Source: a virus. From it: DNA of 64,000 bases. Below the pieces are notes generated by a model. It saw only the letters and a program-made list of their open reading frames with translations. It was not told where the DNA came from and searched no databases. Below, one piece after another: positions 13,129-60,800 of the stretch (positions are counted from its first letter, which is position 1; each line of letters starts with the position of its first letter). The translations under genes and the position numbers were made by a program. The stretch is taken from the IMG/VR virus record IMGVR_UViG_3300017917_002838, positions 40,556-104,555 of that record, one strand, 5' to 3'.

Positions 13129-13136
13129 TTTTCCTC

Positions 13137-13475: not shown

Positions 13476-13617
13476 TATTTCTTACTTTCCAATGATTAAC
13501 AATATAAGGTCCTAAATCGGACTTTATTCTGCCACTCTTTTCTACCCTAACAATTCTACCATTTTGAATAATAGTTTTATTGTGTGGATGTTTTTTAATT
13601 CTTTGACCGTTAGACAT
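13459..13617 (-). CDS. Small basic protein, 52 aa (not in ORF track)
   Basis: MSNGQRIKKHPHNKTIIQNGRIVRVEKSGRIKSDLGPYIVNHWKVRNNGNRG; GGAG upstream; fills the gap. Confidence 0.6.
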   Translation of the reverse strand: MSNGQRIKKHPHNKTIIQNGRIVRVEKSGRIKSDLGPYIVNHWKVRNNGNRG

Positions 13618-13918: not shown

Positions 13919-14112
13919 TACAGTTTAAATCCAGTAGAGGATATATGTCCATTTGGACATTTCCAAAATATAATCTGTTTTTCTCTAACATATTCTGCTT
14001 CGTCTGCAACTTCCTGGCATTCCTGACAAGAAAATGATCCTTCAACAATTGTCTTTGGCTTTTCTACATTTTCATATTCTGGTTCAGAAAAAATGTCATT
14101 AAAGTTTGGCAT
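13918..14112 (-). CDS. Small zinc-ribbon protein
   Basis: CQEC...WKCPNGH. Confidence 0.65.
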   Translation of the reverse strand: MPNFNDIFSEPEYENVEKPKTIVEGSFSCQECQEVADEAEYVREKQIIFWKCPNGHISSTGFKL

Positions 14113-15728: not shown

Positions 15729-15945
15729 AAACGTCTACCCCTTTAAATTTTTTTAACCAGTCGAAGGTTGACATAAGATTTTCTCTAGTAACACAGGTAT
15801 CGCAACCACAAAATAATTCGTATGGCTCCCAACCTTCAGGAACGCCTTCATCTTCATAAATACTGTTTAGGCAAGTATTGATATGATCTGTTACAAAATT
15901 TTGTAAAGACTCCGCTTCTTCTGTAGTTAACTCAACTGAGGTCAT
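15715..15945 (-). CDS. Hypothetical Cys-motif protein
   Basis: FCGCDTC; likely start ATG 15945 coupled to the dnaE stop (ATGA). Confidence 0.65.
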   Translation of the reverse strand: MTSVELTTEEAESLQNFVTDHINTCLNSIYEDEGVPEGWEPYELFCGCDTCVTRENLMSTFDWLKKFKGVDVYVRN

Positions 15946-30359: not shown

Positions 30360-32435
30360 TCAGCTGTAAATTGCACGACAAACGATATCGGTCTCCAATC
30401 CTTGATTATAGTTTAGCGTTACATCTGTTACCAAAAATCTCATTGAATCTGTTAAACCTGGTCTAGAATAATTAATCTTAACAATATCACCTGGAGATAT
30501 TAGTGGGTTTCCAAATACAGACATTCTAACAATAATTTGTTTTTTAGACCATTGTGTTTTAATCCAGTCTGCTAATTTTTTAGCATCTTCTTCTTTTTGA
30601 ATCCAGGTTGAATCAAAGATAATTGGTTCTAGTCCTGCTGCATCTGATGGAGTATCTGTTTTATATTCTAATTGTCCAGCATTATAAACCTGAGTTCCAA
30701 CTATTTGAAATGATAATGAATTTCCATCACTTGCAGGAACTTGACCACCTGTATTATTCATTAAAAACATTTCAAATCCAAAATTATTTGTTTTCGTTCC
30801 CAATATTTCTATATGAGGATTTATTCCTTTGCTTGCATATTTTGCATATCCAGGATTTCCACTTTCATATTTTGTTTTAATTTGTTTAATTTCTTTAGCG
30901 GTGGTTCCAAATTCTAGCATGGTTCCGATATGCTCTTCAGATGTAGAATCAAATACTCTGTTCCCAAATAGGAAGGACATTGCCTGATCTTCAATTTTTC
31001 CATTTTTATTTAAAATCTTTTTAGGATTGTTAAATTCTTCTTCAGTCAGCGGATAGGCATAAACATAGTCATAATTTGCTGTTCCAGTTTGAGCCATAAG
31101 ACCCACATAAGTTGTAACTGGCAAATCTTCTGGCTCGGGATCTGTTGCTACAAATTTTTTACCATTTACATAAATAGTTATTTTTCTTTCAGCAGATGTT
31201 GAGTTATTTACTAATGCAGTTATATTATAAGTTTCACCACCATAAATAGCAGTAACTCTTTTATCGCTGGAATTTTGAGTATCTTTTAAAATTGTTTTAG
31301 ATCCTCCAACAACTTTAGCAACATATATGTCACGTTTATCTCCCGTACTATATCTTGCTGTTGATCTTGTAAATATAAAATATCCATCTGTTCCGGTATC
31401 GTTTGTAAAAAATCCAAGCCCTCCGGCTTGCTCTGGTTTTTTTTCATTAAAATCTAAAAACATGGTTGTGCCAAATGCAAAATATTTATATGGTATTTGT
31501 TCATAAATATATGTTGCTAAATTTAATGCAGAATATGTTGTTGGGAAATTCATATTTTTTATTGCTATAGAAACTTTATCTGAATTTTTAGAATTATTTG
31601 TAATTGATAAAACAGAATTTTGTATATCAGGAATTGTTGTTTTTAATATTGGAATAATTGGTTTTTTGGGAGCTGATTGAGATTCAGTTTTTGCTATTTC
31701 AACTTGTTCTTGAGGTTTTGGTGCGGCAACTGATTGTACAGTAGTTGTAGTAGTTTTCTTTTTTGTTCCAACTGTTGAAGATTTTGATGTACTTGAACTT
31801 TTAGGAACTGTTTTTTTAGTTTGAGTTACAGTTTTTTGAGGAGCTTTAAGGCCATCCATATGAGCTCCATGTGGAATCACAACAGATTTTGCCTGTGGTT
31901 TTTGAACAGAAACTTTTGTAGACTTTGGCGTTGTAAATGTAATTTTTACTGTATCAGAATCATATGAGTTTATTACTTGTGAACTTGAATTTTGCAAAAC
32001 AGTTGTTAATTGTATTTCTAATCTATATTTTGTATTTGAAATTAATGCTGGCATTGGGTCATTAGTAGAAAGTATTGATATTTCATCAACATTTCCAACT
32101 AAAGGAACTGTGTTGTTTTGATTTAAAACATTATATACAGTAGTTGTGTCTCCAGTTAATAATAATTCTTTAATTTTTACTATTAATGGAGGATTATATG
32201 GGGTATAAAAATAATTTACATAAAAGTCATTTACTAGTGATGAGTTACTAACCTTATAAAGTTTTACTGTAAAATTAAAACGATATTTATTTGTTCCTAA
32301 TTGTGCTGGAGAAAAATATTTTGGAGTTAACTCAAAGCTGGCTGAACAGGAAGTACTTTTTAAATTTAATATTTTAAGTTTATTAACAGATCCATTGTTA
32401 TTAGTATTTCCAGAGTATATTGGTTCTCTTGCCAT
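30360..32435 (-). CDS. Minor tail protein
   Basis: C-terminal DSTWIQ...FGNPLISPGDIVKI hub-like motif; start at ATG 32435 (TAATG). Confidence 0.65.
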   Translation of the reverse strand: MAREPIYSGNTNNNGSVNKLKILNLKSTSCSASFELTPKYFSPAQLGTNKYRFNFTVKLYKVSNSSLVNDFYVNYFYTPYNPPLIVKIKELLLTGDTTTVYNVLNQNNTVPLVGNVDEISILSTNDPMPALISNTKYRLEIQLTTVLQNSSSQVINSYDSDTVKITFTTPKSTKVSVQKPQAKSVVIPHGAHMDGLKAPQKTVTQTKKTVPKSSSTSKSSTVGTKKKTTTTTVQSVAAPKPQEQVEIAKTESQSAPKKPIIPILKTTIPDIQNSVLSITNNSKNSDKVSIAIKNMNFPTTYSALNLATYIYEQIPYKYFAFGTTMFLDFNEKKPEQAGGLGFFTNDTGTDGYFIFTRSTARYSTGDKRDIYVAKVVGGSKTILKDTQNSSDKRVTAIYGGETYNITALVNNSTSAERKITIYVNGKKFVATDPEPEDLPVTTYVGLMAQTGTANYDYVYAYPLTEEEFNNPKKILNKNGKIEDQAMSFLFGNRVFDSTSEEHIGTMLEFGTTAKEIKQIKTKYESGNPGYAKYASKGINPHIEILGTKTNNFGFEMFLMNNTGGQVPASDGNSLSFQIVGTQVYNAGQLEYKTDTPSDAAGLEPIIFDSTWIQKEEDAKKLADWIKTQWSKKQIIVRMSVFGNPLISPGDIVKINYSRPGLTDSMRFLVTDVTLNYNQGLETDIVCRAIYS

Positions 32436-34363
32436 TATGACCAGTCCACCTCCCACTCAATTAAACCATTAGCAAATGCTAGATTAGAATATGCCTCTCC
32501 GGTTCCAACATGAGCTTTGGCAGTTGTACCTAAAGCGCCTCTTGTTTTTATTTTAAATCTATTTGTTGGAAATATAGTTCCTGCTTTAGATAAAGATTTT
32601 AATTGTTCTAATTCGCTCTTAGATTTGACAATTACTGGTGTTTGATCAATTCCATCTGAATTTTTATAACGATATTCAGCGCCTTCAAATTCTATAATTT
32701 CATCATCTACAGAAAAATAGCCACTTAAAGATGTGGTTGCAACTACATCTTTTTGAAGTTTGTTTGGAAGTATTGGAGAAAGCTCTATATAGTCAGTTTC
32801 TGAATTATCTAAACTTTTAATTAAAGCTCCTCCTCCTAAAAACATTTCTCCGCTTGATTGCCATAGGAGTTGGCTATTTTGCAAATCAAATTCAGATGTT
32901 ACTGCTGGCTGCCATACAATTTTAACATAACTACTTGATGGAGTTTCTTCCTTTTCTAAAGATATAATATTAGAAGAATATCCATTTCCAGTAGTATCTC
33001 TAAATTCCCACGGTGACGAAACTCTGGTTGCGTCAAACAAATAATCTCTTGTGTAGAACTGCAATATATTATTTTCGTCAAACACCGCTGTCATTTGTGA
33101 ATCTCTGCATATTTCTTGTAGTGCATCCCAAACTGTTTGATCATCTTTTGACCACCAATAAATCGGTGTGATGATTGAGGTGTCTTGAGCTGTTCCAGAT
33201 TTTAAATTTATATTATAATTTGTAAATCCAATAGAGTCCAACATATATCTTATAATTGCTGGTGAAGTATATCCGTTACACAATAAGTTTGGAGAAACTG
33301 TTTCTTGTAATATTTTAGACGAATCTAAAGCTGTTATTGATAAATCTCCATATTCAGAAAGAGTATAGCTATGTAAATAATATGTACCCTGTTTAATTTT
33401 TTCATATGTAGATGAAGTTGGACTTTCATAAACTTTTATATATGGCCTAATAATAAGATTTTTAAATAAATAAATATCAGATGACGATAATGATGTTAAA
33501 GATTTTTCAAATGTTTTAAATTTTATGGAAGACTCAAACGAAATTAATTCTGATCTTAATGAGTTTGCTGTGATTTTTCCCACTGGCAAAAGATCTTCTG
33601 CTGAAGATGAAGACTCTTTACTTATTGAAAATGATTTAAGATATTGTGTAGCATCTAATTCCCATCTGGGAGACAATTCAATAATTCCCAAATATTTGTC
33701 TACGACTCCATCAACTGTTAACCTTAATGTTGTAATACTTACTGGTGATGCAGGTGTAGTTGGTTCAGCTACAGACCACAAGCTACCATCATAATAAATA
33801 GTAACAGTGCCAGCATTTGGACTTCCCCAAGGTGCCACGTTTGAAGCATTTCCGGAAAAAATTGTTCCTGCTTGAGTTCTTATAGTAAAAGATTCTGGTA
33901 TTGAGTGACCAAGCTCAAAACGAACAACTATTTTGTTTGCTAAAATTGTTTTAGGATAGGTCATTGAAATATCTACTGCTTGACCTTTGCCATAAAGCCA
34001 GTATTTATATACGTTATCTTGACCCGGATAATATGTTCTGTATTGTAAAGAATATTGACTATTACGAGGATCTTTATAACTACCCGTCAAAACATCTCCG
34101 ACAATAGCATATTTAATTCCGGCACTTTCTGGCCTAAATGGTTTTTTAATTGTATCTATTGGAAAAAGTTTTTTAAATGGAGATCCAGGAACAACAGTTT
34201 GCGGATAATTTTCTACTCCACCAGCAAAATTATTAATTGTAATAAAACTTGTTTCTGTTTCTCCCATATAATTCATATTATATTCAAAGGTCATGCCAGC
34301 AATAGCTTTTACAGAATTGCCAGTTTTAATTGCTGCCAATGTAGCTGAATTTGCAGAAATCAT
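32435..34363 (-). CDS. Minor tail protein (baseplate hub-like)
   Basis: TVWDALQEICRDSQMTAVFDE..LQF; start at ATG 34363 (ATGA). Confidence 0.7.
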   Translation of the reverse strand: MISANSATLAAIKTGNSVKAIAGMTFEYNMNYMGETETSFITINNFAGGVENYPQTVVPGSPFKKLFPIDTIKKPFRPESAGIKYAIVGDVLTGSYKDPRNSQYSLQYRTYYPGQDNVYKYWLYGKGQAVDISMTYPKTILANKIVVRFELGHSIPESFTIRTQAGTIFSGNASNVAPWGSPNAGTVTIYYDGSLWSVAEPTTPASPVSITTLRLTVDGVVDKYLGIIELSPRWELDATQYLKSFSISKESSSSAEDLLPVGKITANSLRSELISFESSIKFKTFEKSLTSLSSSDIYLFKNLIIRPYIKVYESPTSSTYEKIKQGTYYLHSYTLSEYGDLSITALDSSKILQETVSPNLLCNGYTSPAIIRYMLDSIGFTNYNINLKSGTAQDTSIITPIYWWSKDDQTVWDALQEICRDSQMTAVFDENNILQFYTRDYLFDATRVSSPWEFRDTTGNGYSSNIISLEKEETPSSSYVKIVWQPAVTSEFDLQNSQLLWQSSGEMFLGGGALIKSLDNSETDYIELSPILPNKLQKDVVATTSLSGYFSVDDEIIEFEGAEYRYKNSDGIDQTPVIVKSKSELEQLKSLSKAGTIFPTNRFKIKTRGALGTTAKAHVGTGEAYSNLAFANGLIEWEVDWS

Positions 34364-34821
34364 ACTTCTTCCAGAGAGATAGATACTTCCCAAAATTCTT
34401 GTGCGGGATCAGTTGATCTAGATTTTACATTTCTTTTAGATAACGTACAGCTAAATGAAGATATAAACATTGTCAAAGATTCCGTTCTTGTTGGACTATA
34501 ATATATAGTCAGTGTTACTGGAGAAAGGCCAGAAGTTTCGTATAAATATCTTAGGTCTAGTGCTCCGTAACCAGTGTCTAATGTCATTGTACTATATGAT
34601 GGCAAAACTGACCAGGAGGTAGAAACTGTTTTTTTATTGGCTACAATAAATTTTCTCATGGAGCCATCTGCCATTCTATCTGATTTTTCTATTCGATTAT
34701 AGCCAATATCAATTGGCGCTCTATTGTGTTCACTTAATTTATTTGAATTAATATATAAAGCTGATCCAGCTGGCAAAGTAATCTTGCTGGCACTAGAGGT
34801 TACTGGTGTTTCGTAGCTCAT
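34360..34821 (-). CDS. Distal tail protein-like minor tail protein
   Basis: RMADGSMRKF...WEVSISLEEV; immediately downstream of tape measure. Confidence 0.7.
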   Translation of the reverse strand: MSYETPVTSSASKITLPAGSALYINSNKLSEHNRAPIDIGYNRIEKSDRMADGSMRKFIVANKKTVSTSWSVLPSYSTMTLDTGYGALDLRYLYETSGLSPVTLTIYYSPTRTESLTMFISSFSCTLSKRNVKSRSTDPAQEFWEVSISLEEV

Positions 34822-37800
34822 GATTTAAACCTTCTATCTGAACCAATCTTTATATTTGAAAGTTTGGTGTTACTATTTATAATACCAACTATATCATTCT
34901 TTAGCTTATCTTCCATATATGGCGACAACTCTCCTTGGAATATAAAGTTTAATGTTGTAGCTCCATAAGAATCTGATTCTACCATTCCGCCATAAGCATA
35001 TCCTATTCTATTTGTAGGGACTTTATATACTGCACCGCCAACACGATATGAAGGCATTGACATATTAGATGACATTGATGGGTTTACGTATCCGCCCATT
35101 CCCATTCTGTTAATATTATTTAAGAATGGAACACCAACTGCTGCCGTTGCTCTAGCATTAACAACAAATTCTCCATTTGAGAGCAAGGCTGGAATTGAAT
35201 CTGATGTTCCAGTTCCTGGACCATAAATAGGTCCGCCCATGGCTGATCCTTTTGGTCTTCCTCCGGTTCCAACATCTCCAACACCAGGTCTATTGGTATA
35301 TGCTCCTTTTCCTCCACTTTGATATTCTGGTCTTTCAACAGCTTTAACAGATTTACCATTAACAGTTGCACCTTCTGGAATTTTTCCAGTTGTAATTATG
35401 GTTGCTGCTGTTACAAAATCTGTTGCAGCAGCTTTAATGTCTGAAGCACCTTGAGTAAAATTCTTTTGAGCTTCTACACTTAATTCAGAAGATGCCCTAT
35501 TTCCTAGCGCTGCTATCTTAGATTGAAGATCCGTTGAAACTGTTAACTTTCCTCCGCCTCTTGCAGCCATTCTATTTTCTTCAGTATTAGCAATAACGCC
35601 AGTTCCCAAAATTGATTCTACTGCGGCGTTTAGATCTTTATCTTTAAGTGATTGAACACCTTTAATTGCTGTTTCCATCTGACCCATAAATGCTTTTTGA
35701 TCAATTTGCCCTAGTTGTCTTGCTGTGAGTGCTTGAGATATAAGACCCATATACATTTGAGCCTGAGAAGATTTTTGCTGATTATTTGCAGCAGATTGTT
35801 GCATGGCAACAATTTCTTTTTCTTGCTTCATCTTTTTTTCATTAAGCTTATCAATTTTTGCTTGTTGTTCTTCTAGTTTGCGTTGTCTCTCATCTTCAAT
35901 TGCTTGTAGAGCAAGTTGTTCCTGACGCTCCCTAGCAGCATCTTGAATCCTTATTTGAGCTGATGCAGCAGCCTCTTCATTTCCATTTGCTATAGCATTT
36001 CTATATTCAATATCTAGTAAAGATATTTCAGTCTTGAAATCACGTTCTGCTTTTTGTAGCTCAAGTGCTTTCTTTCTGGCATCCGCCTCTTTATTAATTT
36101 TGTCAATAATTTTTTGAATAGCGTCTGCTTGTTTTTTATAAGCTTCTTCGCTACTTTGAGCGGCTTTTTGTATAGATTTAGACGAATTAGACCATTTCTT
36201 TGAATAGTTATCAATTGCTGTATTTAAAGGACCAAATGATCCTGTTTTTAATATTGATGCTGATGCTGTTTCTACGCTTGATTGATATTTTGCTAAAGAA
36301 ATTGCAGTAGCTGCATCTAATTTAGATACCTCATCGCCCATTCCAGCAAGTAGTAATTTAGATTTAGCATAAACGCTTGCTAGGTTGTCAGAAGTATTAA
36401 GTACCTGACCAAGTTCTTTATTTTGAGCTTGTATTGCTAAAAGTTGTTCATTAGTTAAATTTTTATTTGCGCCTTGTGTATTGGCAATTGTTTGAAGTTG
36501 TGTATTAACTGCCTCTTGTGCGGTAACAATTTTTCCTGTAGCATCTTTTGTACCAATTGAAGCTTTTTCTGCTTCTAATAAAGCATTAACCATAGACATA
36601 ATTCCGGTTGCAGCTTCTTCAGAATTGGAATTTACAGAAGACATTTCTGTGGCAGTTATTCTAACTTTTGCTGCAGCAGCAGTTGCCTTATCTGTAATAT
36701 CTGCAAAACCCTTATTTCCTATAGCACCTACAGCCATGGTAGCTTTTTCAGAAGCTTTAATAATTGCAAATACTTTATTTGTTGCTTCTTCTGCGCTCAT
36801 TCCACCGGCAATAAAATCGGCTTTCATAGATTGAGCTAATTGATTAACGTTAGAAGGATCTATGTTATTAAATAAGTTAACAAGATCTGGCATATTTTTC
36901 TTTGCATCTTCTATTGCAGTTTTTAATTCTTTTATGCTTAGTGTTAATCCTCTAAATCCAGTTTTAGTATTTTCGTTATAAGCTGCTAAACCTGATGCCT
37001 TAAATGCATCTGCTGCATCTTTGGCAGACTTTAATCTATCGGAAAGAGAAACAATTTCTATTCCAGCCTTTTTAGCTTGTTCTCCGGTAAGTCCAAAAGA
37101 AGCTCTGTTTGCTTTTCCAACCTCTTCTGCATGTTTTTTCATGTCTAAGAATTTTTTGCCTAACCATACTACTGCAGTAAGTATGGCTCCTGGCAAGGAT
37201 AACATTTTTAATAACCTTATAACTTTAAAAACTACAACACTCATGCTTGTCATTCCTTTTAGTGCTGTTCCTAATTGTGGTAAAAATGCTGGAGCCATAC
37301 TTAATGCCATTCCACCAGCCATCATAGCTGTTCCACCGGCACCACCCATTTGACTTCCAGCTGTCATCATTCCCATTCCAGCCATTCCAGCCAGCATTCC
37401 ACCATTATCTTTTCCATAATTTTGCATTCTTTTTGCAAGTGCTTCTCTTCTGGATCCAGCTGCTGGAGGAGGTGGTAAAAATCCTGCTCTTGTTGTTAAA
37501 AGTTTTTTCCATTCTGTTTTAGTTTGAACAACTGTTCCGAGAGGACCTTCAAATGTTTCTCCTGCTGCCATTGGTCTATCTCGCAGTCTAGAAAGATCTT
37601 TAAATCCAGCTAAATAATCTTTTGTTTTTGAAGCAGCTAACTTTGCAGATTCTCCAGACTTTAGTATAGCTGCTCTACTTTTATCTATTGCATTAGATAT
37701 TGCTTTACTAGAAGACTCATATGATTTTTTAATTGAATCATTTATTGCTGCTATTCTATCTTTTGTAGAATTTGCAGCTTGTAATAATCCAGTGTAAGCA

Positions 37801-40800
37801 GTTGTTGTAAGCTGGTTTCCCATTCCACTTGTTCCAGTAAGTGCTCCCATAGAATAATCTGGCATAGGTGTAAAAGTGACTTGTGATCCTCTTACTTGTA
37901 AATCTGAAGGTCCCGCTCCTCTAGTGCCATAACCTCTAGTTTTTCCTGGAATAACTTCTCCTGCTGCCATTGCTGCAGCTTCTTGTCTTGCATTAAATTC
38001 TGCTTCCTGCATAGCACGTTTTGCTGGATTTCCAGAAAGACCTTGTCTCTTTTTTCTTACTTGACCAGCTTTAGCATATTTTTGAACACCAGGAATTATT
38101 GTTCCAGAAGTATTTGGTACAAACATCTCTGGTCCGTTTTCTCCAACTACATATGCTCCTCCAGCGCTAACTCCACCACCCATTGCTCTATTGCCAGACA
38201 TAGGTCCAGAAATAGTTTCAATTCTTAATCCGGTTGAATCGGCTGCAGTAATTCTAAACTTTCCACCAAAATAAGACTCTTGTTCATTTACAGCAACTTT
38301 TCCTTGAGGTGTGCCAAATTCTAAGTCTGGAACTATTTTAGAAATAGGAGTCATACCTCTATTTTTAACATCTGCCATTAAATAGAAATCGCCAAATCCT
38401 CTTGCTACTTGTGGATCAGAACTCCATGAAGACCTTCTCATGATGAATTCTTTTCCTATCAACTTTGAAAAATTTCCAGTAGCTTTTGCCATTTTAATTT
38501 CATTCATTAGCCACTCGGGAAGTGGTTTCATTGCAGTTGATGAAGCTAAACTTATTCCTCTAAAGAATGTTCCAGAACCTTTAGTTCTTGCTGCAAGCAG
38601 AGCGGCAACATGGGAAGGTTCTCTCATTATGTCATATGCGCCCTTTGCATACATCTCTGCAGCATATCTTGCTCTTTCTTCTGCAGAACCAGTTGCCCCA
38701 GCCATTACGTTAATTGTTGATTTTTGTCTAAATGGATTCCAACTTGGTCCATATTGTATAGCAGCAGGATATGCTCTATTCCTAACTGTTACTGGGGTCA
38801 TGTATTTTCCAATATTTAATGGTCCATGTAATGGGTCTTGATTACTACTGTCTACTCCACGAACTTTACCCCATTTTGACATTATCTTGGCTAATCTTGA
38901 TGCAGCAATTCCTGGAATTCCTCCACCACCCATGTAATTATTTAATGGAATCATTCCGCCGAGATTGCTCTTTCTAATTACATTTCTTGTTTTTAAAGAT
39001 TTTATTCTACTTTTCTTTGCCCCATTAGATATCATTACCTCATCAATAAATGGTATAAAATTTTCAAATTGTATATCTCCGCCAAAATCTCCAATTAGCA
39101 GGTCGTCTTTGTCTGATAAATATTTTTTTATCTGTTTGTCTATTTCTTTTTCTGCTTTAGCAAATTTACTTTGATCGACTCCTGCCATCCTAAATAAATT
39201 ATCATATTTGCCATATCTTCCTAAATTTCTTGCAATAAAATCTGAAACAAGTAAATTGTTTTGATTTGCTTGTTTGTTTGATCGTTCATCATAGTCAACA
39301 GTATATTTACTTACATATCTTTTATTTCCAACAATTCTTGCTTTAGTTAGATGAGTTGCATTTGTTGGAGTAGTTCCAGAATAACTAAGTCTTGGAAACC
39401 CATTTGATTCTAGTATTGAAGAAAGTTCTCCTCTAGAATCTAGATGACCCCATTCTAAAGTTTTTGTGCTTCTAGCCCTAGACCTATCTAAATTAAATCC
39501 ATAATTTTGAATAACTTCAGCAGCCTTTGATCTTTGATTTAATGGTAAAGACTCTAAATAATTTTGTATAGCATTTCCAGTATTATTTCCTCTAGTAAGA
39601 ATTGGATACTTATTACCAAAAAGATATCTAAGAGAAGTAGCATCTCTTCCTCTCCCGGCAAATCTAGATGCAACAATTCCTCTAAGAATCCTAGCGATAC
39701 CACCTACATTCATTCCTGATCCTGGAGCCTGCTTGTTATCATTTATTGCCATTAAAAGTGGAAGATTTTCTGCTGTTGCTTTTCTGTTTACAACAAATTC
39801 TCCTGGAGTAAGCATCGCAGGAACTACGTCAGCATTTATATTTGGACCTGGAACAACAGAAGGACTTTGATAAATTTGTCCTCCTTTATTTCTATATTGG
39901 AATCCTGAAGCTTCTCCTGCTATTCCAAGATTTTCAGAAAAAGGACCATAAAATCTTCCAGCTCTATCTTTTCTCAACAAAGACTTGCCGTTAAATGTTA
40001 CTTTGCCAGAAGGAGATCTTGAAATAATTTGTTGGTTTGTTCCAGGAACCATTCTTAATCTAGAAACATTTATTCCACGAGAAACAGCCATAGACTCTAA
40101 TTCTGCTAGCAGTGCTCTGTTTGCCGCTTCTATTTGAACCTGAGCCTGTTCTGCAGTAATGATTCCTTGCTGTGCTTGAGTAGCTATTGTTTTTGCAGCA
40201 TTTGCAGCATTTGTTGCAATTGCTCTTATTCCAGGAAGAATGTCATCAAACTCTTGTAAGAATTGAGTTGGAAGCCTTCCAGTCATATTTAAAACATTTA
40301 AAGCATTTTCTAATTCGGCTTTTGTTTTTGTTGCCATAGTTGTAAGCAATGCTTGGTATCTTGCATATTGCTCTGTTGAAATTGATGCTGATGCACCTTT
40401 TAATGCGGTAACTCCTTCCACCATTGGAGTTCCTGTGGTTCCTAAAGGTTGTGGTCTAGTTCCCCAACCTTGATTTATTCCTCCGACAAAAGGAACTGAC
40501 GCATAGAATGTTTGTTTTTCTAATTCTTCTGGAGTCATTCTTGCTTGTGCAAGTAAATGAGCTATATTGGATTCTGGAATTACACTTCCAGATTCGCCCA
40601 TTATATTAGCTCTTCCAGTAGCTCCTGATGTTCTTGTAATTGTTGATGGAACAACTTGATTCAATGCAGCTAAAGATGCTCTTAAATTATCTACAGCAGA
40701 TTTTAATGCTGTAGCTGCTGCTGCATCAGAATATAAAGTTTGTCCAAAACTTTCTGCTGCAGCTTCTGCTGCAACCATGTCTGGAGTTAATAATTTAAAT

Positions 40801-42542
40801 CCTTTTGCGCCAGAGAAAAATGCTCTTAAGTGTGAAAGACCTTTAAATACATATCCAAGGAAGTTAGCAAAAACACCTGTAAGCATAATTATTGGACCAG
40901 TTACTGCAGTAACACCACCTAAAATACTTAAAAACTTTTTAACTGGCTCTGGTAATTTATTAAAGAAATTAATAACTTTGTCTGCAACATTAATTAGTTT
41001 TGTTGCAATATCTAAAAATGATTCTCCTACTGTTGCTAAATCTGCCCTTAATCCTTCAATTGCTCTTCTATATCTACCAGAAGCAGATTCAGTTACCATC
41101 GCTAATTCTCGATCAGCAATAGCACCTATTTGTTGAGTGCTTGCTTTCATTAGATCTAGAACTTGTAAAGTTTGGCTGCCTTGTCTTCCAAGATTATCAA
41201 ACAAAGCACCCATTCTTGCAAATTGATATTTACCAAATAGTTGTTCTAACGCCTGCTGTTTTTGTAATGGATTTAATGTATCTAAAGCACTTTGTAATGC
41301 TAAAATTGTGTCTGTTAAATTTCCTGCATTTTTTGTAACTAGTGCTTCTAAATCTATGCCAAATCCTTCAAACATATCCTTGGCTCTATTTGTTGGATTA
41401 ATTAATGAACCAAGTGCTGATTTCAAACCGTTAGCAGCTGAAGCTGCATCAATTCCGCCTTCACGCATAGCTGTTAGATAAAGAGCCAAATCTTGAACGC
41501 TTCCGCCAAGACCTCTGATAATTGGTCCAGCTTTTGGAATTGCATCTACTAAGTCATTTAGAGTTGTTGAGGTTTGGTTTTCAACTGCGTTAAGAAAGTT
41601 AATTGAATCTGCTAACTCAGTTGTATTTTGCTTAAAAGCATTCTGAATTGCAAGAGTTGCTTTCATTGCTTCTTGTCTATCTACTTCACCAAGAACTGAA
41701 AGTCTTGTTGTTTCTTGTAATGATTTTAATAGGTCATTACCTTGTTGACCAGTTGCTGCAATATCTGCTGCCAAGGCAATGGTATCTTTGAATGATACTC
41801 CATATGCAGATGACAAATCCTTGGCAGTTTTAGATACATCGTCTCTTACTTTACTTAGTTCCTGTGAAGAAGTAGCTGCAAGTCCGCCGTAAACTTTTGT
41901 TAATCTTGTTAGTTCACGATCTGCTTGATTGAATGCTTCTGCTGCAGCTTTACCAAATGCTGCTATAGGAACAGTAAGACCAACCGTTAGCTGTCTACCG
42001 GCCCATTGTGTATTTTTACCCCAGTTGATGAGCTGTAGAGATCCATCTTGCATAACTTTATTCATAATAGACAGCTCTTTATTTGCTATAGCTGTTTTAT
42101 TTTTTAATTCGTCTATGCCAGTAGGAATATTAACTGCAAACTGCATCTGTCCTCTAGCATTTTTTCCTAGTGGTTGCAGTATTGCTTGTTGTAGAGCTAT
42201 TTGTTGTCTGGCAAGCTCTTTAACCATACTATTAGAACTTCTATGATATTCCTGCCAAGTTCTATAGTAATCTCTTAACTTTAATCTTCCGGCATCAAGA
42301 TTCTTTCCAAATTTATCTATGTCTCTAGATACCGCTACAAATTGTGTACTAAATTGACCGCTATTACTTAAGATTGAAGAAAAATTAGCATTTGCAGTTT
42401 TAATGTTTCTAGTTAATGCTGCATCTGTTAAACTAAATTGTTTTTGTAAAGCAGAAAGCTGAGTTATTGCAGACTTTACCTGGCTTAACAAACCAGAGAA
42501 ATCTGCATTAGCAGTAATTTGCGTATTAATTATTTCGGCCAC
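34818..42542 (-). CDS. Tape measure protein (TP901-family core) with inserted enzyme-like cargo domains
   Basis: 2574 aa, Ala/Gly-rich; WAGRQLTVGLTVP and LNAVENQT TMP core; follows tail assembly chaperone; internal R-S-E ART motif. Confidence 0.93.
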   Translation of the reverse strand: MAEIINTQITANADFSGLLSQVKSAITQLSALQKQFSLTDAALTRNIKTANANFSSILSNSGQFSTQFVAVSRDIDKFGKNLDAGRLKLRDYYRTWQEYHRSSNSMVKELARQQIALQQAILQPLGKNARGQMQFAVNIPTGIDELKNKTAIANKELSIMNKVMQDGSLQLINWGKNTQWAGRQLTVGLTVPIAAFGKAAAEAFNQADRELTRLTKVYGGLAATSSQELSKVRDDVSKTAKDLSSAYGVSFKDTIALAADIAATGQQGNDLLKSLQETTRLSVLGEVDRQEAMKATLAIQNAFKQNTTELADSINFLNAVENQTSTTLNDLVDAIPKAGPIIRGLGGSVQDLALYLTAMREGGIDAASAANGLKSALGSLINPTNRAKDMFEGFGIDLEALVTKNAGNLTDTILALQSALDTLNPLQKQQALEQLFGKYQFARMGALFDNLGRQGSQTLQVLDLMKASTQQIGAIADRELAMVTESASGRYRRAIEGLRADLATVGESFLDIATKLINVADKVINFFNKLPEPVKKFLSILGGVTAVTGPIIMLTGVFANFLGYVFKGLSHLRAFFSGAKGFKLLTPDMVAAEAAAESFGQTLYSDAAAATALKSAVDNLRASLAALNQVVPSTITRTSGATGRANIMGESGSVIPESNIAHLLAQARMTPEELEKQTFYASVPFVGGINQGWGTRPQPLGTTGTPMVEGVTALKGASASISTEQYARYQALLTTMATKTKAELENALNVLNMTGRLPTQFLQEFDDILPGIRAIATNAANAAKTIATQAQQGIITAEQAQVQIEAANRALLAELESMAVSRGINVSRLRMVPGTNQQIISRSPSGKVTFNGKSLLRKDRAGRFYGPFSENLGIAGEASGFQYRNKGGQIYQSPSVVPGPNINADVVPAMLTPGEFVVNRKATAENLPLLMAINDNKQAPGSGMNVGGIARILRGIVASRFAGRGRDATSLRYLFGNKYPILTRGNNTGNAIQNYLESLPLNQRSKAAEVIQNYGFNLDRSRARSTKTLEWGHLDSRGELSSILESNGFPRLSYSGTTPTNATHLTKARIVGNKRYVSKYTVDYDERSNKQANQNNLLVSDFIARNLGRYGKYDNLFRMAGVDQSKFAKAEKEIDKQIKKYLSDKDDLLIGDFGGDIQFENFIPFIDEVMISNGAKKSRIKSLKTRNVIRKSNLGGMIPLNNYMGGGGIPGIAASRLAKIMSKWGKVRGVDSSNQDPLHGPLNIGKYMTPVTVRNRAYPAAIQYGPSWNPFRQKSTINVMAGATGSAEERARYAAEMYAKGAYDIMREPSHVAALLAARTKGSGTFFRGISLASSTAMKPLPEWLMNEIKMAKATGNFSKLIGKEFIMRRSSWSSDPQVARGFGDFYLMADVKNRGMTPISKIVPDLEFGTPQGKVAVNEQESYFGGKFRITAADSTGLRIETISGPMSGNRAMGGGVSAGGAYVVGENGPEMFVPNTSGTIIPGVQKYAKAGQVRKKRQGLSGNPAKRAMQEAEFNARQEAAAMAAGEVIPGKTRGYGTRGAGPSDLQVRGSQVTFTPMPDYSMGALTGTSGMGNQLTTTAYTGLLQAANSTKDRIAAINDSIKKSYESSSKAISNAIDKSRAAILKSGESAKLAASKTKDYLAGFKDLSRLRDRPMAAGETFEGPLGTVVQTKTEWKKLLTTRAGFLPPPPAAGSRREALAKRMQNYGKDNGGMLAGMAGMGMMTAGSQMGGAGGTAMMAGGMALSMAPAFLPQLGTALKGMTSMSVVVFKVIRLLKMLSLPGAILTAVVWLGKKFLDMKKHAEEVGKANRASFGLTGEQAKKAGIEIVSLSDRLKSAKDAADAFKASGLAAYNENTKTGFRGLTLSIKELKTAIEDAKKNMPDLVNLFNNIDPSNVNQLAQSMKADFIAGGMSAEEATNKVFAIIKASEKATMAVGAIGNKGFADITDKATAAAAKVRITATEMSSVNSNSEEAATGIMSMVNALLEAEKASIGTKDATGKIVTAQEAVNTQLQTIANTQGANKNLTNEQLLAIQAQNKELGQVLNTSDNLASVYAKSKLLLAGMGDEVSKLDAATAISLAKYQSSVETASASILKTGSFGPLNTAIDNYSKKWSNSSKSIQKAAQSSEEAYKKQADAIQKIIDKINKEADARKKALELQKAERDFKTEISLLDIEYRNAIANGNEEAAASAQIRIQDAARERQEQLALQAIEDERQRKLEEQQAKIDKLNEKKMKQEKEIVAMQQSAANNQQKSSQAQMYMGLISQALTARQLGQIDQKAFMGQMETAIKGVQSLKDKDLNAAVESILGTGVIANTEENRMAARGGGKLTVSTDLQSKIAALGNRASSELSVEAQKNFTQGASDIKAAATDFVTAATIITTGKIPEGATVNGKSVKAVERPEYQSGGKGAYTNRPGVGDVGTGGRPKGSAMGGPIYGPGTGTSDSIPALLSNGEFVVNARATAAVGVPFLNNINRMGMGGYVNPSMSSNMSMPSYRVGGAVYKVPTNRIGYAYGGMVESDSYGATTLNFIFQGELSPYMEDKLKNDIVGIINSNTKLSNIKIGSDRRFKS

Positions 42543-42551
42543 TGCTTTTAA

Positions 42552-42923
42552 TTATTCCTGAGCGTATCCTAATCCTTGATTTATTCCAAATCCTTTGCTT
42601 GAAGCACTTTCACCTTGTAATCCAACAACGTCGTTTTTTATTCCAGTGTCTATACCCAGAGCTCTCATTTGGACATCTTCAAATGTTAGAACGTCTCCTG
42701 ACTCTTCCTCCTTTAGATTAACCCCTTGCAATGAAGCAAAGAATTTTCTTTCTTCGTCTTCTTCTTTATGCATACTTTCTAGGGTATGCAAAAGCTCTGG
42801 CATAGATAAGCTTTCTTCTAGTTCTTCGTAGTTTTTCCAAAAACCTAGAAGAAAAACTTTACCTTCAAGGGCGGCTAGATCTAGTTCTGACCAGCTAGAA
42901 CTGCCGCTGCTAGTAAATTTGGG
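42552..42923 (-). CDS. Tail assembly chaperone, -1 frameshift extension (G-T fusion part)
   Basis: The -1 frame is open from the slippery site CCCAAAT (42923-42917) to TAA at 42552: ...WSELDLAALEGKVFLLGFWKNYEELEESLSMPEL... Confidence 0.8.
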   Translation of the reverse strand, partial: PKFTSSGSSSWSELDLAALEGKVFLLGFWKNYEELEESLSMPELLHTLESMHKEEDEERKFFASLQGVNLKEEESGDVLTFEDVQMRALGIDTGIKNDVVGLQGESASSKGFGINQGLGYAQE

Positions 42924-43213
42924 TCATCCATTTTGATGCCACCACAAACTTCTAGAATTCTATTAATGGTTGGAATGTCTAATGCATCTTCTAGTGCATC
43001 TTTATCTTTAACAAGTTCTGGAAGTTGTTTTTCTAGGGCAACGCCACATGCATCAATTAGAAGATCAAGTGTTTCTTCTTCGCCTGTTACCTCTGAAGTT
43101 TTTTGCATAACTTCCATAAATTTTCTTAGTTCTTTAATACTCAATGGCTTGAGTTTTACTTTTGCTCCATTTTGAAGCTCAATTTCTTCTACGCTATAAA
43201 CGGTAGTAGCCAA
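42881..43213 (-). CDS. Tail assembly chaperone
   Basis: Between major tail protein and TMP; TTG start with AGGAG SD; promoter TTGTCA-N17-TATAAT at 43268-43240. Confidence 0.85.
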   Translation of the reverse strand: MATTVYSVEEIELQNGAKVKLKPLSIKELRKFMEVMQKTSEVTGEEETLDLLIDACGVALEKQLPELVKDKDALEDALDIPTINRILEVCGGIKMDDPNLLAAAVLAGQN

Positions 43214-43313: not shown

Positions 43314-43961
43314 TTATGCTTCGATCACACGATCAATAATCTTACCGTACTCAGCGCCTGCGTAAGCAGAGTCTGGAAGTAGACGGAAGGTTACTGGAAA
43401 TGTGGTTGCAGCGTTACGAGCTAGAGAGAATTGTGACTGTTGTACTGAAAGTACACGACGTGCATAATATACACGCTCACGCTTCTTATTTGATGCGTTT
43501 CTTGGTGCTAGACCAATAGCGATCAATTGACGCTCTGTTGGTTCTGCGCCGAGAGCTCCTGCTTCGATTGACAAAACATCAGATGCGAGAGAAGATGCTT
43601 TTTGTCCGAAAACTCGAACAACGTTAGCTAGTGTTGCTTCAGTAAATTCTGTAGCAAGCATAACTTCCATTGCTTCCTTGAAAAGCTTTGCTGTATCGAG
43701 AAGTTGATCAACAGTTACTGAACCATATGTTGGGTTGTAAGTAATCTGAAGACCGTTATTTGTATAACCTACGTTAGAATAAGCTGAACCAAGTGCTCCC
43801 TTGAGTTCTTTTGTTGACTCATCATAAAGAGAATTGGTTGAATAAGCTGCAACGTTAGTTCCTTCTGGAATTACTGCTGTGTAGGATGCGTCTGTTGAAT
43901 CTAGATTTGATAGAAACATAGGTGCTGCACCTACAAGAATATTTTTAGCTTCAAATGCCAT
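43314..43961 (-). CDS. Major tail protein
   Basis: NILVGAA...VGYTNNGLQITY...VDQLLD...EATLAN...PVTFRLLP; strong SD GGAGG; terminator follows. Confidence 0.85.
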   Translation of the reverse strand: MAFEAKNILVGAAPMFLSNLDSTDASYTAVIPEGTNVAAYSTNSLYDESTKELKGALGSAYSNVGYTNNGLQITYNPTYGSVTVDQLLDTAKLFKEAMEVMLATEFTEATLANVVRVFGQKASSLASDVLSIEAGALGAEPTERQLIAIGLAPRNASNKKRERVYYARRVLSVQQSQFSLARNAATTFPVTFRLLPDSAYAGAEYGKIIDRVIEA

Positions 43962-49763: not shown

Positions 49764-51350
49764 TTATTCTACCTGGCGACCTGCACCTTGTTCATTTCTT
49801 CCTTCTCCAGAAATATCCGGAGAATTTGCTGTCCTTTCCTGATCTCTTCTTCTAGAATCCATAGCCTGAGAACGCTGTTCTGCCTGTTGTTGTGGCTTTA
49901 ATTCAATAACCTTATCTCCATTGTCTAAAGGAATATATCCTTTTCTAATTCTGACCTCATTTGGAGTTATAACCTGCATTCTTAAATATCTTTCGTCAAT
50001 CTTAGATTGAGTATCTTCATCTGTTAGGGTCATTTCATTGAATTTAATTTCTAAAGCATCAGTCTTTTCTTTAATTAATTTAGATAGTTTTTTCTCTAAT
50101 AACATTTGAGAAGGTCGGCAAACCTGCTCTTTAAATGTTTTATCGGCATCTCTTGCAACTGCTAAATTAACACCTTCTGGAGTTCCCACCTTGTTTACAG
50201 GCACTCTATGAGCCATTAATATTTCATCACGATTTGATTTTCTATAAACATTAAATGAAGATTCTTGTGTTCCAGCCTCAACCGGCTCCATCTTAAATTC
50301 TACCTTTTGATCTGGAGAATCTGCTGGAAGCGGAATATAAAGAGATCTATGATTTCTCCCCTTAAGTCCAACCTGGAAAAATTCTAAAAGTTTTCTTTCT
50401 GATTCTGGTGAGAGTTTCGCACCCTTTACGGTAATAATATATCTTGGAACTGCTTTGTTCTCAAAATAGTCTAGGTTATACTTACCTGCAAATTCATTAC
50501 CTGCTAAAGCATTCTGTGCAGAGATAATATCTGGTATTCCATAATATTGATTTACCGGTGTATATTTCTTAATATGAATAATTTCGTTTGGACGATCTTC
50601 TCCGCCAAGAATTGGGTTTGGAGTTTCCATATCTCCAAAGTTTCTAAAAAATACAATCTTGCCATAAAGAAGCTGTACGAATCCGTCTCTCATTCTTCTT
50701 ACACGCATAGTTTTTGCTGGGATATGTCCAATGTATCCAATGTCTCCACGAACAGTTCTACCTATTTCTAGATATCCATTTCCTGTTGCTTCATAATCTG
50801 TCCAAACTTTAATAAGAGTTTCTGTAAAGGTTTCATTATCATTACATTCATCAAGCCAGTTAAAAAGTTGTTGTTTCATTCTTTCAATTTTTCTTCTAGC
50901 TCTTTCTAGCTGTGGACCCTCTTCTAGTTGATCAAGGGCATCCTTCATCTTTCTGCTTTCTTCAAATGAGTAGCCCAAACTTACAATATTTGCAACCTTA
51001 GCATTAATTGCAGCATAGTTATATGTAGAAATTTCATAAATTCTTGAAAGATATTCCATATTGTATGTTGGTTCTATCAAGTCTAGTAATGCATATCCGC
51101 TTACTGCTTGAGCCATTAAAACTTGTTGTGTCTTTGCGCCATCTTCTCCAGTAAAAGATTTTGTCATTTCTCTAGAAATTTTTCTTCTAAATGCTGGAGA
51201 TAGCCCCGACATCTTTTTAATATCTTCTGCGCTTACCGCGAATGGGTCTATAGAATTACTTTCTTTTTCAAACTTAAAACGGTCATCGTATGAAACAACA
51301 CTTACTGTGTTTTCCATATCTGGCTTATCTTCTTCAAATGAAACTCTCAT
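49764..51350 (-). CDS. Portal protein
   Basis: DYEATGNGYLEI...EIIH...YYGIPD...YFENKAVP...ILMAHRVP...TPNEVR. Confidence 0.93.
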   Translation of the reverse strand: MRVSFEEDKPDMENTVSVVSYDDRFKFEKESNSIDPFAVSAEDIKKMSGLSPAFRRKISREMTKSFTGEDGAKTQQVLMAQAVSGYALLDLIEPTYNMEYLSRIYEISTYNYAAINAKVANIVSLGYSFEESRKMKDALDQLEEGPQLERARRKIERMKQQLFNWLDECNDNETFTETLIKVWTDYEATGNGYLEIGRTVRGDIGYIGHIPAKTMRVRRMRDGFVQLLYGKIVFFRNFGDMETPNPILGGEDRPNEIIHIKKYTPVNQYYGIPDIISAQNALAGNEFAGKYNLDYFENKAVPRYIITVKGAKLSPESERKLLEFFQVGLKGRNHRSLYIPLPADSPDQKVEFKMEPVEAGTQESSFNVYRKSNRDEILMAHRVPVNKVGTPEGVNLAVARDADKTFKEQVCRPSQMLLEKKLSKLIKEKTDALEIKFNEMTLTDEDTQSKIDERYLRMQVITPNEVRIRKGYIPLDNGDKVIELKPQQQAEQRSQAMDSRRRDQERTANSPDISGEGRNEQGAGRQVE

Positions 51351-57842: not shown

Positions 57843-60800
57843 TCAACTCAAGGCACCGGCATCCATGGTAAAGCTAAATGATGAGGTATTTGGTGCTCCT
57901 CCATCAACTATTGAGTCAAATGATGTGGTTGACGGGCTTCCAGCCTCTACTGAAGCCGAAGACATAACAAACCATATTCCACCATAAGCTACATTTAAGG
58001 TGAAATTTTCATAATTAAAATAAATTTGTCCGTCTGCCGGATTACTTGGATCTTGATTTGTTACTGCTACAAATGGGTTTGCCCAAGATGCCGAACTTCC
58101 ATTTGTAGTTAAATATTTTCCAGAATTTCCACTCTGGGTAGGCAGTGCGTCTACTGATTGCCAAGAAACATCCAAACCGTCTGTAGTTAAATACTTTCCG
58201 TTATTTCCACTTTGGGTTGGATATACCGCTTTTCCATCTAATTGTGTTTGAATATTAGATTGGGCTCCATCAAGGTAGCTTATTTCTGTAGCAGATATTG
58301 TCTTAGATGAGGCAACAATAGTTGGATCTGTAAAAGTACCACCAGAAACTGTTGCATTATTTATAGTTGAACCAGATAAAGTTGAACTTAAAATATTTGT
58401 ATTGTTTAATGTTCCGCCAGAAATAGTTTTGTTTAAAAGTGTTTGATTTGATTCAGTATCTGCAATATAAATTGAAGATCCTGTATAACTTGGGAAAAAT
58501 ATAGATTTGCCTACTCCGGTCCACCCTATTGATGGATTTGTTTGAGAAAGTTTGATTGATGGCTCATTTATTGTTCCACCTGAAATAGTTTTATTTGATA
58601 GTGTCTGAGTATCAGTTGTACCAACAATGTCTCCGGAAACTCCGTGTGTAGATAAATCATTAATATGATTTGTTAAATCTGTAGATGTTGCTTTATCATT
58701 TAATTGTGTCTGAATGCTAGATGTAACACCGTCTACATAATTTAATTCAGTTGTAGTAAGAGTTGCACCGTCAAGGATATTTATTTCCGATGCTGATGCT
58801 GTTACACCATCTAAAATATTAAGTTCAGCTGTACTTGCAGTAATTCCGTCTAAAGTATTTAGTTCAGATGTTGAAAGTGTTGCTCCGTCTAGAATATTTA
58901 ATTCAGAGGCAGATACTGTAGCCCCAGTAAGAATATTTAGTTCTGTAGTTGAGGAAGTAATTCCATCTAGTGTATTTAATTCTGCAGTAGATGCTGTAAT
59001 TCCGTCTAATGTATTTAATTCAGAGGCGCTTGCAGTCAAATCTGAGACATTTGCAACTTGAACTGTAATTGTATTATCTGAATAAGAAATTGTCTTATTG
59101 CTAAGTGTTTGTGCTGTTGTTTTATCTACTGTTGTTGCAGTATCTATATTGAATTGTGAACCACTTAAAGTTAATCCGGTTCCTGCTGTATATGTTCCAG
59201 CACCAGAAAACTGTGTAAACTCAATATTATCTGAACCAATTGTTGAAACAATATTTGTTTGAACCCATCCAGTTTTTCCATTTATTGAACCTAATTGTAC
59301 AAATACAAAGTCTCCGGCATCTATTTCTGTAATGCTGTTGTAGTCTGATGCACGAGTAGGTGCGCCTGTTGCTTCAACAATATAAATGCCATTTTCAGAT
59401 TTTGTTGACTGATTCTTGATAAGAATTCTATCACCTGTTACAAGTGTGATTCCATCAATTACGTCTCCGTTTTCAAAATCAGATGCTAATGTTTTGCTTT
59501 CAGTTGTAGCTACTCGAACTGCATCGTGAACATTTAATCCTGTTGTAGCTGCATCTACATAAGCTTTTGTTGCTGCATGTAGATCATTTTCTGGGGTTGC
59601 TGATAGAGTTAGGAAACCTGTCATGGTTCCACCGGCTAAATCTAATTTATCATCTAATGCATTTTGAGTTGCTGTTGAAATTGGTTTATCTGCATCAGAA
59701 GTATTATCTACATCTGAAAGTCCTACATCAGATTTTGTAAGACCTGTTGGGTTATCGATATGTGGAGAGGTAAGAGTCTTATTTGTAAGAGTTTCTGCTC
59801 CGTCAATTGTTGCAAAATCTCCATCTGATAAAGCTGTATTAAATTCAGCTACTGTACCAGATAGATTATTATCAGCTAAATCAATTTCTTTATTTGTTAA
59901 AATTTGAGATGTGTTTAGATCAACTGTTGCATTTGTATCAATTGATATGGAACCAGAATTTGAATCATAAGATATACCATTCCCGGCAGAAATTGAATCA
60001 CGTGCACGTTGTTCTGTAAAATATTTATTTGTAGGGGTTAATGTTTCTTGAACATCATCTGTATTCAAAGTTACACTTGATCCAAGTGCTATTGAATATC
60101 CATTTACAGTAATAGAGTCATTATCTAATGCATTATTTGGTATATTTTGAAGAGTATTATCTCCGCCATTAATTGTTTTATTAGTTAAAGTCTGTATGTC
60201 TGAAGTGCCAACAACATTTCCGTTAATCCCGTGAACATTTGAAGAATATCCATCGTGTGTCGAAACTTCAGAAGATGCTGATCCAGCTGCATCATACCAT
60301 GTATCAACTGTATCTCTATCTACAACAATTTGACCAGAAATAATTTCAAGACCTGTGCCTAAGTCAGCTGAAATATCTCCTGTAGCGCCTAATGTAATTC
60401 CGTCTCCGCCATTTAGTGAATCCCAAACACGCTGTTCTGTAAAATACTTATTTGTTGTACCCTCATCAAGATCGTCTGTTGTTGAGTCGGCAACTCCATT
60501 TTCTGCTGTTATTGTTAGTTGACGATTTGCCTCATCGTAAGAAATTGAAATATTTGACTGTGTTGAATTTTCAAGAATATAACCTGCGGCATCTTTTGCT
60601 CTATTATCAGTATAATATTTATTTGTTGTGCCCTCATCAATATTATCAGTACTATATGATGCAGCTGAACCCAAATGGATCTCGTAACCATTGATTGTTA
60701 CTGAATTATTTTCTAATTTATTATTTTGAATAGAACCAGCAAGCATTGCATTTGTAACTGTACCCAAATCTGCTGCTGTTATTGCAGTTCCAGAAATTTT

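Follow-up and report, generated by a model that had tools for sequence, protein, structure and literature searches.

A predicted ADP-ribosyltransferase module inside the tape measure protein of an uncultured siphovirus-like phage

Tape measure proteins (TMPs) fill the lumen of the phage tail. They have to come out ahead of the DNA, and they enter the cell envelope or pass through it. Some of them, such as those of mycobacteriophage, lactococcal phages and T5 (pb2), bear peptidoglycan hydrolase motifs and are carriers of catalytic domains acting during entry. The present work deals with an ADP-ribosyltransferase (ART) predicted to lie within the TMP (P0001) encoded by a 64,000-nt stretch of viral DNA. 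This stretch, referred to below as the window, comprises bases 40556-104555 of the 104,555-bp IMG/VR virus record IMGVR_UViG_3300017917_002838. The record has direct terminal repeats and is rated complete, and the phage is siphovirus-like, with a genome of 104.5 kb. No report of an ART within a phage TMP was found in the full-text literature searched, which is incomplete, and earlier notice elsewhere is possible.

The ARTs of phage T4 (Alt, ModA and ModB) belong to the clade to which the TMP domain is assigned below. T4 Alt travels in the virion and enters the host together with the DNA (PMC9206674, PMC7824862). It is, however, a separate head-packaged protein, and ModA and ModB are early gene products, whereas the enzyme described here is a domain of the tape measure; Alt is likened by description, while ModB is detectable at the profile level. 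Fusions of MuF head proteins with ARTs are also on record (PMC7302621, PMC9206674; both cite Jamet, 2017). In the MuF-toxin fusions of Microbacterium, Gordonia and Pamexvirus phages, a conserved virion protein bears a variable effector, often a VIP2-like ART. This carrier logic is shared with the TMP studied here, and so is a comparable polymorphism in the presence or absence of the effector among close relatives. In contrast to the MuF fusions, the carrier here is a tape measure in the tail lumen, the ART is internal, between TMP motifs, rather than C-terminal, and Pfam found no MuF domain in P0001. The cell-wall hydrolase modules of TMPs act outside the membrane and need no cofactor, whereas an ART depends on NAD+ from the cytoplasm, a requirement implying that protein is moved into the cell. 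In actinobacterial contractile injection systems, the TMP-related Sle1-type effectors are modular (PMC13277306, 2026): a TMP-like scaffold is a reconfigurable platform, the functional domain varies between relatives, and one of these domains is a toxin. The likeness is drawn by description; unlike the TMP of the window, these effectors serve intracellular phage-tail-like particles, their functional domains are C-terminal, and no ART has been reported among them. Virion-borne ARTs known so far are T4 Alt and the head-packaged MuF fusions, and enzymes embedded in TMPs are known only as cell-wall hydrolases.

Catalytic motifs and predicted fold of the embedded domain

The TMP gene and the parts of its ART module are the following:

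34818..42542, minus strand: TMP gene (P0001), an open reading frame (ORF) of 2574 amino acids (aa)
38691..38921, minus strand: N-terminal extension of the ART module, aa 1208-1284, holding the invariant N1234-x-D-P-L-H-G-P-L-x-I-G
38808-38843, minus strand: the N1234-x-D-P-L-H-G-P-L-x-I-G motif itself, aa 1234-1245
38208..38690, minus strand: predicted ART catalytic core, aa 1285-1445, placed by the AlphaFold2 (AF2) model, structure matches, hhalign to ModB and invariance
38559-38561, minus strand: R1328
38427-38429, minus strand: S1372
38421-38423, minus strand: S1374
38283-38285, minus strand: E1420
38277-38279, minus strand: E1422

An earlier note on this DNA had read the segment at 38190-38920 as an ART embedded in the TMP, on account of three ordered motifs typical of the R-S-E clade. 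Both the placing and the residue numbers proved correct. The segment is aa 1208-1451 of the 2574-aa protein, recognised as a TMP by PF10145, PHROGs and Streptomyces phage TMPs, and R1328, S1372-W-S1374 and E1420-Q-E1422 fall within GTFFRGISL (aa 1324-1332), IMRRSSWSS (aa 1367-1375) and AVNEQESYF (aa 1417-1425), respectively. The ART core proper is narrower than the segment noted, spanning aa 1285-1445, and the conserved module begins upstream of it, at about aa 1230. The ordered triple, searched as [FYH]RG..30-60..S.[ST]..30-60..E.E, occurs once in P0001, where the R-to-S and S-to-E spacings are 44 and 50 aa. Since the triple appeared in only 29 of 2000 residue shuffles (1.45%), the motifs are unusual even alone.

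The conservation of these residues was followed in an alignment of 37 sequences (A2), whose members are 31-49% identical to the window's ART copy. R1328 and G1329 are invariant in all 37, the residue before the arginine being F, Y or H. S1372 is likewise present in 37/37, and position 1374 is S in 34 members and T in the other three. The E1420-x-E1422 pair is found in 36/37, the exception (L057) having lost the whole strand. Further invariants are N1234-x-D-P-x-H-G..L-x-I-G, Y1298, G1301, G1324, the F-I-M-R-R stretch before S1372, R1395, and G1426-G1427. The ratio of non-synonymous to synonymous substitution rates (dN/dS) of the module has a median of 0.22 (range 0.08-0.45, 377 pairs), a value that is approximate because many pairs are near synonymous saturation; at the level of codons, this points to purifying selection on the ART module.

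Two minor observations concern the same region. In L057 (10001-10837), the ART module lacks the E-x-E strand, FPDGG directly joining the motif-F-like PVSGGTPYVVGERG, and looks like a decaying copy. In the window, a 133-aa antisense ORF (38440-38841, plus strand) lies within the ART-coding region and is most likely a by-product of strand composition.

The AF2 model, built on A2 with its 37 homologues, has a predicted local distance difference test (pLDDT) score of 79 and a predicted template modelling (pTM) score of 0.68. In its core (segment residues 80-236), most blocks of 10 residues score 82-97, and a single one falls to 69. When this model was compared with the Protein Data Bank (PDB) by Foldseek, 77 matches were obtained at E<1e-3, and among the matches listed all are ARTs: C3bot (2.2e-5), Tre1, a Listeria ART-ARH effector, ExoS, Iota Ia, CDTa, C2-I, Certhrax, HopU1 and Vis. 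In this way the ART split beta-sheet fold that the earlier note had anticipated was borne out in the predicted structure. VIA-align, a structure comparison independent of Foldseek that was run against 48,161 chains, gave a top 18 consisting entirely of R-S-E ARTs (Z 8.0-11.5, root-mean-square deviation (rmsd) 3.0-4.7 Å, 127-144 aligned residues, model residues 78-238). The highest Z scores were those of 8za7_B (11.5), C3bot2 (10.6), C3stau2 (10.5), VIP2, Vis, Certhrax and CPILE-a (10.3 each), and Tre1 (9.8), while cholera- and diphtheria-type ARTs reached Z 2-3 only. In BFVD, the named matches are almost all ARTs of phages and giant viruses, many of them MuF, portal or minor capsid fusions, and ModB is included; none of the BFVD matches to the ART model bears a tape measure name.

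The secondary structure around the motifs also agrees with what had been noted. In segment numbering of the AF2 model, the arginine ends strand 113-123 (beta1), and S-x-S ends strand 158-167 (beta2) and is followed by a short helix (170-174). The E-x-E precedes two beta strands: E1420 sits in a loop like the ADP-ribosylating toxin turn-turn (ARTT) loop, and E1422 opens the first strand (215-227), which is followed by the second (231-236). As 128-144 residues of the model superpose on solved ARTs at 3.0-3.7 Å, R, S and E would line a single NAD+ pocket.

At the sequence level, hhalign aligned A2 with T4 ModB (taken from NC_000866) at P=1.5e-4 over 129 columns, whereas 22 unrelated proteins of T4 and the window gave P>=0.056 and short alignments. 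The alignment pairs F-R1328-G-I-S with Y-R73-G74-I-S of ModB, and N-E-Q-E-S with R-E-Q-E-W of ModB. T4 ModA alone aligned weakly to the ART family, and the Pfam signals in A2 members are faint (PF03496 at E=0.1 in 2/37 and DRAT at E=0.14 in 1/37). By its fold and catalytic motifs taken together, the segment is very probably an ART of the R-S-E (C3/VIP2-like) clade. That it is a real, divergent and probably active enzyme with a complete catalytic motif set is well supported by the structural model and the motif alignment. The E-x-E motif suggests, by analogy, arginine as the acceptor, E-x-E ARTs being usually arginine-modifying.

Among described enzymes, the C3/VIP2-like toxins are the nearest in structure (C3bot/C3stau, VIP2, Iota Ia/CPILE-a, Certhrax, Vis, ExoS, HopU1, Serratia Tre1 and the Listeria ART-ARH effector). 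They have the same split beta-sheet fold as the model (VIA Z 8.9-11.5, rmsd 3.0-3.7 Å, 127-144 residues), with R on beta1, a short helix after S-x-S/T, E-x-E at the ARTT loop/beta5, and similar R-S and S-E spacing. Nonetheless, structure-based identity to these toxins is 11-22% only, and the TMP ART falls below threshold for PF03496 and every other curated model. It also has additional invariants, namely N-x-DPLHG upstream, FIMRR before S-x-S, R1395, and GGKF after E-x-E. Finally, it is embedded mid-chain in a tail protein instead of being secreted or exported, and no ARH partner was found in the genome.

The upstream N-x-DPLHG element deserves separate mention. The pattern N-x-D-P-[LAT]-H-G is present in 48/48 ART-bearing TMPs and in 0/50 ART-less ones, always 87-106 aa upstream of R-G. 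Model confidence in this region is low (pLDDT 48-60), and most structural matches start only at aa 1285. The motif may serve the enzyme as a lid at its N-terminal end or as an element for the substrate. By analogy, it may also be a self-processing site, D-P bonds and the motifs N|PTH or GD|PH being known sites of autocleavage.

Distribution of the module and mosaic centre of the tape measure family

A phmmer search of 1.84 billion representative proteins returned 44 relatives of the ART, nearly all of them proteins of 2300-3700 aa with the domain at about aa 1200-1600. In IMG/VR, an alignment query retrieved 57 loci with the ART, always within open frames of 2300-4200 aa, and a single-sequence ART query found no relative. 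No relative of the module was found in INPHARED phages (megablast, tblastn) or in GTDB species genomes, and it therefore appears confined, within the collections searched, to TMPs of uncultured phages. The ESM Atlas gave weak leads only (DUF4765, 0.89; a viral cluster with 20% PF03496 members, 0.85), which were not used as evidence. In the phage itself, no second ART was found; the PF03496 profile had no match in the whole genome, the window segment included.

The remaining parts of P0001 surround the ART as follows:

40683..42542, minus strand: conserved N-terminal TMP body, aa 1-620, including PF10145 and the hydrophobic hairpin
40836-40937, minus strand: hydrophobic hairpin, aa 536-569
39693..39905, minus strand: motif B, aa 880-950, a GG..P..GEFVVN-type TMP motif that recurs near the C-terminus as motif J
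38922..39692, minus strand: region C, aa 951-1207, a separate globular module with an R-K-x-N-x-GG linker at its end
38043..38192, minus strand: motif F, aa 1451-1500, R-x-x-GG-x-V..G..Y-V-V-G-E-N-G-P-E-M-F-V-P, a module-end motif
37158..37403, minus strand: Gly/Met-rich, glycine-zipper-like stretch and hydrophobic segment, aa 1714-1795, downstream of the ART, from hydropathy and a G...G...G scan
34821..37115, minus strand: C-terminal helical TMP body (aa 1810-2420) and motif J region (aa 2420-2574), found in 29-35/44 homologues, with a composition rich in helix formers and PHROG TMP C-terminal motifs

When IMG/VR was searched with the TMP N-terminus, 80 loci of 62-69% identity were obtained, and the TMP frame was recovered in 79 of them. 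The ART is present in only seven of these 79 N-terminus-matched TMPs, and at least 45 complete TMPs of 2041-3895 aa are devoid of it. When all complete related TMPs are pooled, 48 have the ART and 50 do not, a count of ART-less proteins that is slightly inflated by some frames (L003, L094 and L139; 1022-1334 aa) that look truncated or split. With respect to L003, the TMP is divided into a 1022-aa frame (6031-9096) and a 1918-aa frame (9065-14818), while the near-identical L004 has a single frame of 3198 aa; either the gene is truly split or frameshifted, or the assembly is faulty. When the ART label is mapped on a tree of the N-terminal 620 aa, nine changes are required, at least six of them forced by well-supported branches, and the TMP of the window joins four ART-less TMPs with 100% support. 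Its nearest relatives are thus ART-less.

The central stretch that extends from motif B (about aa 905-970) to the C-terminal helical body falls into 16 unrelated clusters; no Pfam family was found in the non-ART central cargo segments. Motif F, which follows the ART, is kept in 34/44 proteins, and ART-less TMPs have it after different cargo. An ART-less class of 18 members has a different globular segment exactly at the ART position, with a GG linker before it and the same R-E-M-GG-P-V-N-x-G..Y-L-V-G-E-K-G-P-E motif after it. The segment of this class (L095:3713-6670, L105, L112 and L138; TMP aa ~1000-1800) amounts to about 750 aa of unrecognised cargo with motif F at its end and has no Pfam match. 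Region C, in turn, accompanies the ART in L006 and L040 but is found in ART-less TMPs in L140-L149, L151 and L152. It is marked by the motifs ATHLT, VSxYTVDYDxRSNxQAN, KYD, IGD and IPxID, and its AF2 model (pLDDT 73.6) resembles no known fold, Foldseek giving no match at E<1 and VIA-align a best Z of 4.9. These alignments and the N-terminal tree show the ART to be an exchangeable module, one among several in the mosaic centre of this TMP family.

Other additions are found at the C-terminus of related TMPs of 3100-4200 aa. These extensions comprise CHAP plus LysM (L028:12865-16788, L002:12224-14779), LysM alone (L005:14027-18409, L041:13052-17494), and an OmpA-like domain (L130:12591-16367). 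By their domain assignments they are cell-wall-directed modules on the same TMP carrier.

Proposed delivery with the tape measure and competing explanations

The reading favoured here, with moderate confidence for the mechanism as a whole, is that a TMP-embedded ART cassette of about 220 aa (aa ~1230-1450) is delivered with the TMP and modifies host proteins early. The ART would be built into the virion as part of the TMP. The TMP has to vacate the tail lumen before the DNA can pass, and on infection the ART would thus be ejected into the envelope or the cytoplasm of the cell. At that site it would possibly be refolded, or released by proteolysis at the Gly-rich linkers, and would then use host NAD+ to ADP-ribosylate one or more host targets. 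The outcome would be host takeover or counter-defence prior to any phage gene expression. T4 Alt is known to show that an ART brought in by injection is able to reprogram its host from time zero, and by analogy with Alt and with TMP ejection in general, delivery of the ART into the host cytoplasm is plausible. In P0001, hydrophobic segments at aa 536-569 and aa 1765-1795, the second preceded by the Gly/Met-rich glycine-zipper-like part (aa 1714-1760), flank the ART and so place it between two predicted membrane-active regions. Glycine zippers are common to TMPs and Tde1, a type VI secretion system (T6SS) effector that requires them to cross the target cytoplasmic membrane (PMC10240207). As to reversal enzymes, the ARH (PF03747) and macro (PF01661) domains are absent from the phage genome, other immunity types not having been searched for; the picture agrees better with an effector acting in one direction, on the host, than with a toxin paired with its immunity protein.

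If a TMP contains an NAD+-dependent enzyme, the implication is that some portion of the tape measure arrives in the cytoplasm still functional. The finding would bear on the destination of the TMP during siphophage genome delivery, and it makes protein delivery by the tail experimentally approachable.

Several points weigh against the favoured reading. The protein is known from metagenome sequence alone, and no curated sequence model is significant for the segment in Pfam (E<=10), PHROGs, NCBIfam or PDB sequences (phmmer and family profile). On these searches, the ART is a member of neither PF03496 nor any other current sequence family model searched, and a family that escapes all curated models is therefore invisible to standard annotation. 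Moreover, the lumen of the siphophage tail tube is about 4 nm wide, and three in-register folded modules of about 25 kDa are hard to fit in it; therefore, the domain may lie unfolded within the tail, and the cytoplasm is the only place that offers NAD+. Synthesis of the TMP, moreover, takes place late in the cell producing the phage, where the enzyme could just as well be active. The module is also dispensable in about half of the related TMPs, and its release by cleavage is putative.

The late synthesis of the TMP underlies an unlikely alternative, in which the domain is an active ART or NADase whose work is done late in infection, in the producer cell, instead of being delivered into a new host. 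Its substrates might be host or phage proteins at the time of tail assembly, or components of the virion that it would ADP-ribosylate; it might also weaken NAD-dependent defences by depleting NAD+. Synthesis in an NAD+-containing cytoplasm, the invariance of the catalytic residues and the lack of an ARH or macro reversal enzyme in the genome all agree with this possibility, which in addition removes the steric problem of a folded ART in the tail lumen. However, a late cytoplasmic function needs no embedding in the middle of a virion protein, the ART always occupies the same cargo slot with conserved TMP motifs on both sides, and tail assembly chaperones normally coat the nascent TMP. The target is a different matter. 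It is rather improbable that the ART fold now serves solely to hydrolyse NAD+, or acts on something other than protein (DNA, RNA, or a small molecule, for example a precursor of the cell wall), in which case the arginine rule for E-x-E would be inapplicable. R-S-E-like ART folds do include nucleic-acid modifiers and NADases, of which Scabin, Tne2 and Tse6 appear at low VIA Z. The sole relative found at the sequence level, T4 ModB, reportedly also attaches RNA chains, according to RNAylation work of 2023, and the invariant DPLHG, FIMRR and R1395 are atypical of C3/VIP2 enzymes. Nevertheless, the best structural matches (Z 8-11.5) are all protein-modifying ARTs, whereas the DNA- or NAD-directed members stay at Z<=4.

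Loss of activity altogether would leave a catalytically dead structural insert that keeps the ART fold, for instance as a spacer, a plug, or a module for binding a receptor or chaperone. The absence of the ART from about half of the related TMPs, the loss of the E-x-E strand in L057 and the failure of every sequence model to recognise the domain are compatible with such an insert. It is very unlikely, however, given that pseudoenzymes usually lose their catalytic residues, while here these are invariant in 36/37 sequences, down to 31% identity with the window copy, and dN/dS is about 0.2. An artefact, either chance motifs on an over-predicted model or a giant ORF that is a mis-assembled chimera, can practically be dismissed. 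It is true that the fold evidence depends on a predicted model and that the shuffles yield the motif triple at the low rate given above. Yet the same architecture is found in 57 independent IMG/VR contigs with open frames of 2300-4200 aa, and two independent structure aligners agree with a controlled sequence profile test. Chance motif match and assembly chimera were rejected as essentially refuted by these contigs, VIA-align, and hhalign with its controls.

Delivery of the ART with the ejected TMP may be part of a wider scheme, which is put forward tentatively and is more doubtful than the mechanism for the ART itself. The central TMP region would be a polymorphic effector-cargo slot, a siphophage counterpart of MuF toxins and of the cargo of T6SS and extracellular contractile injection systems (eCIS). 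Its independent modules may include the ART, region C and at least 12 unrecognised others, arrayed in a chain with Gly-Gly linkers and conserved docking motifs between them. They may be kept in the lumen in an unfolded form and expelled before the DNA, with membrane crossing aided by the downstream glycine-zipper segment, and may perhaps be freed by processing, for example at the ART-specific D-P-L-H-G. If this were true, long-tailed phages would own a generally applicable and programmable means of bringing proteins into the cytoplasm. New effectors that act early, in takeover or against defences, may be sought in a swappable TMP slot with many unrecognised modules, which is possibly also a natural protein-delivery scaffold.

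Genomic setting of the tape measure gene

Almost all genes of the window are on its minus strand. P0001 matches PF10145 at aa 237-437 (9e-30), and its N-terminal 800 aa match PHROG TMP families, the best being phrog_10030 (2.5e-123); C-terminal TMP motifs are matched twice. The closest cultured relatives are annotated TMPs of Streptomyces siphophages of about 132 kb, with 34-36% identity over aa 3-620. The order of the tail module fits a non-contractile tail, the neighbours of the TMP being these:

49764-51350: portal, upstream in the tail-module order
43314-43961: Ig-domain tail protein, before the TMP
42881-43213 and 42552-42803: two small ORFs between the Ig-domain protein and the TMP, at the place expected for the chaperone ORFs
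30360-34393: minor tail proteins, after the TMP

Judged by its homology to TMPs together with its position in the tail module, P0001 is a genuine phage tape measure protein.

Other genes of the window were characterised by their domains. A Mtd_N (major tropism determinant) domain stands at the N-terminus of a 1231-aa protein (57843-61538, minus strand), and two Mtd_N proteins were counted in the pooled Pfam scan of 46 window ORFs. The same scan detected, among the pooled ORFs, RecA, a primase and a DnaB-like helicase, together with Hsp20, a ferritin-like protein, and glycosyl- and methyltransferases. Mapping to individual ORFs covered the portal, DNA polymerase III alpha, and the PA14, Laminin_G_3 and Mtd_N proteins. 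The phage also encodes a DNA polymerase III alpha with PHP, finger and HHH domains (15942-19229, minus strand).

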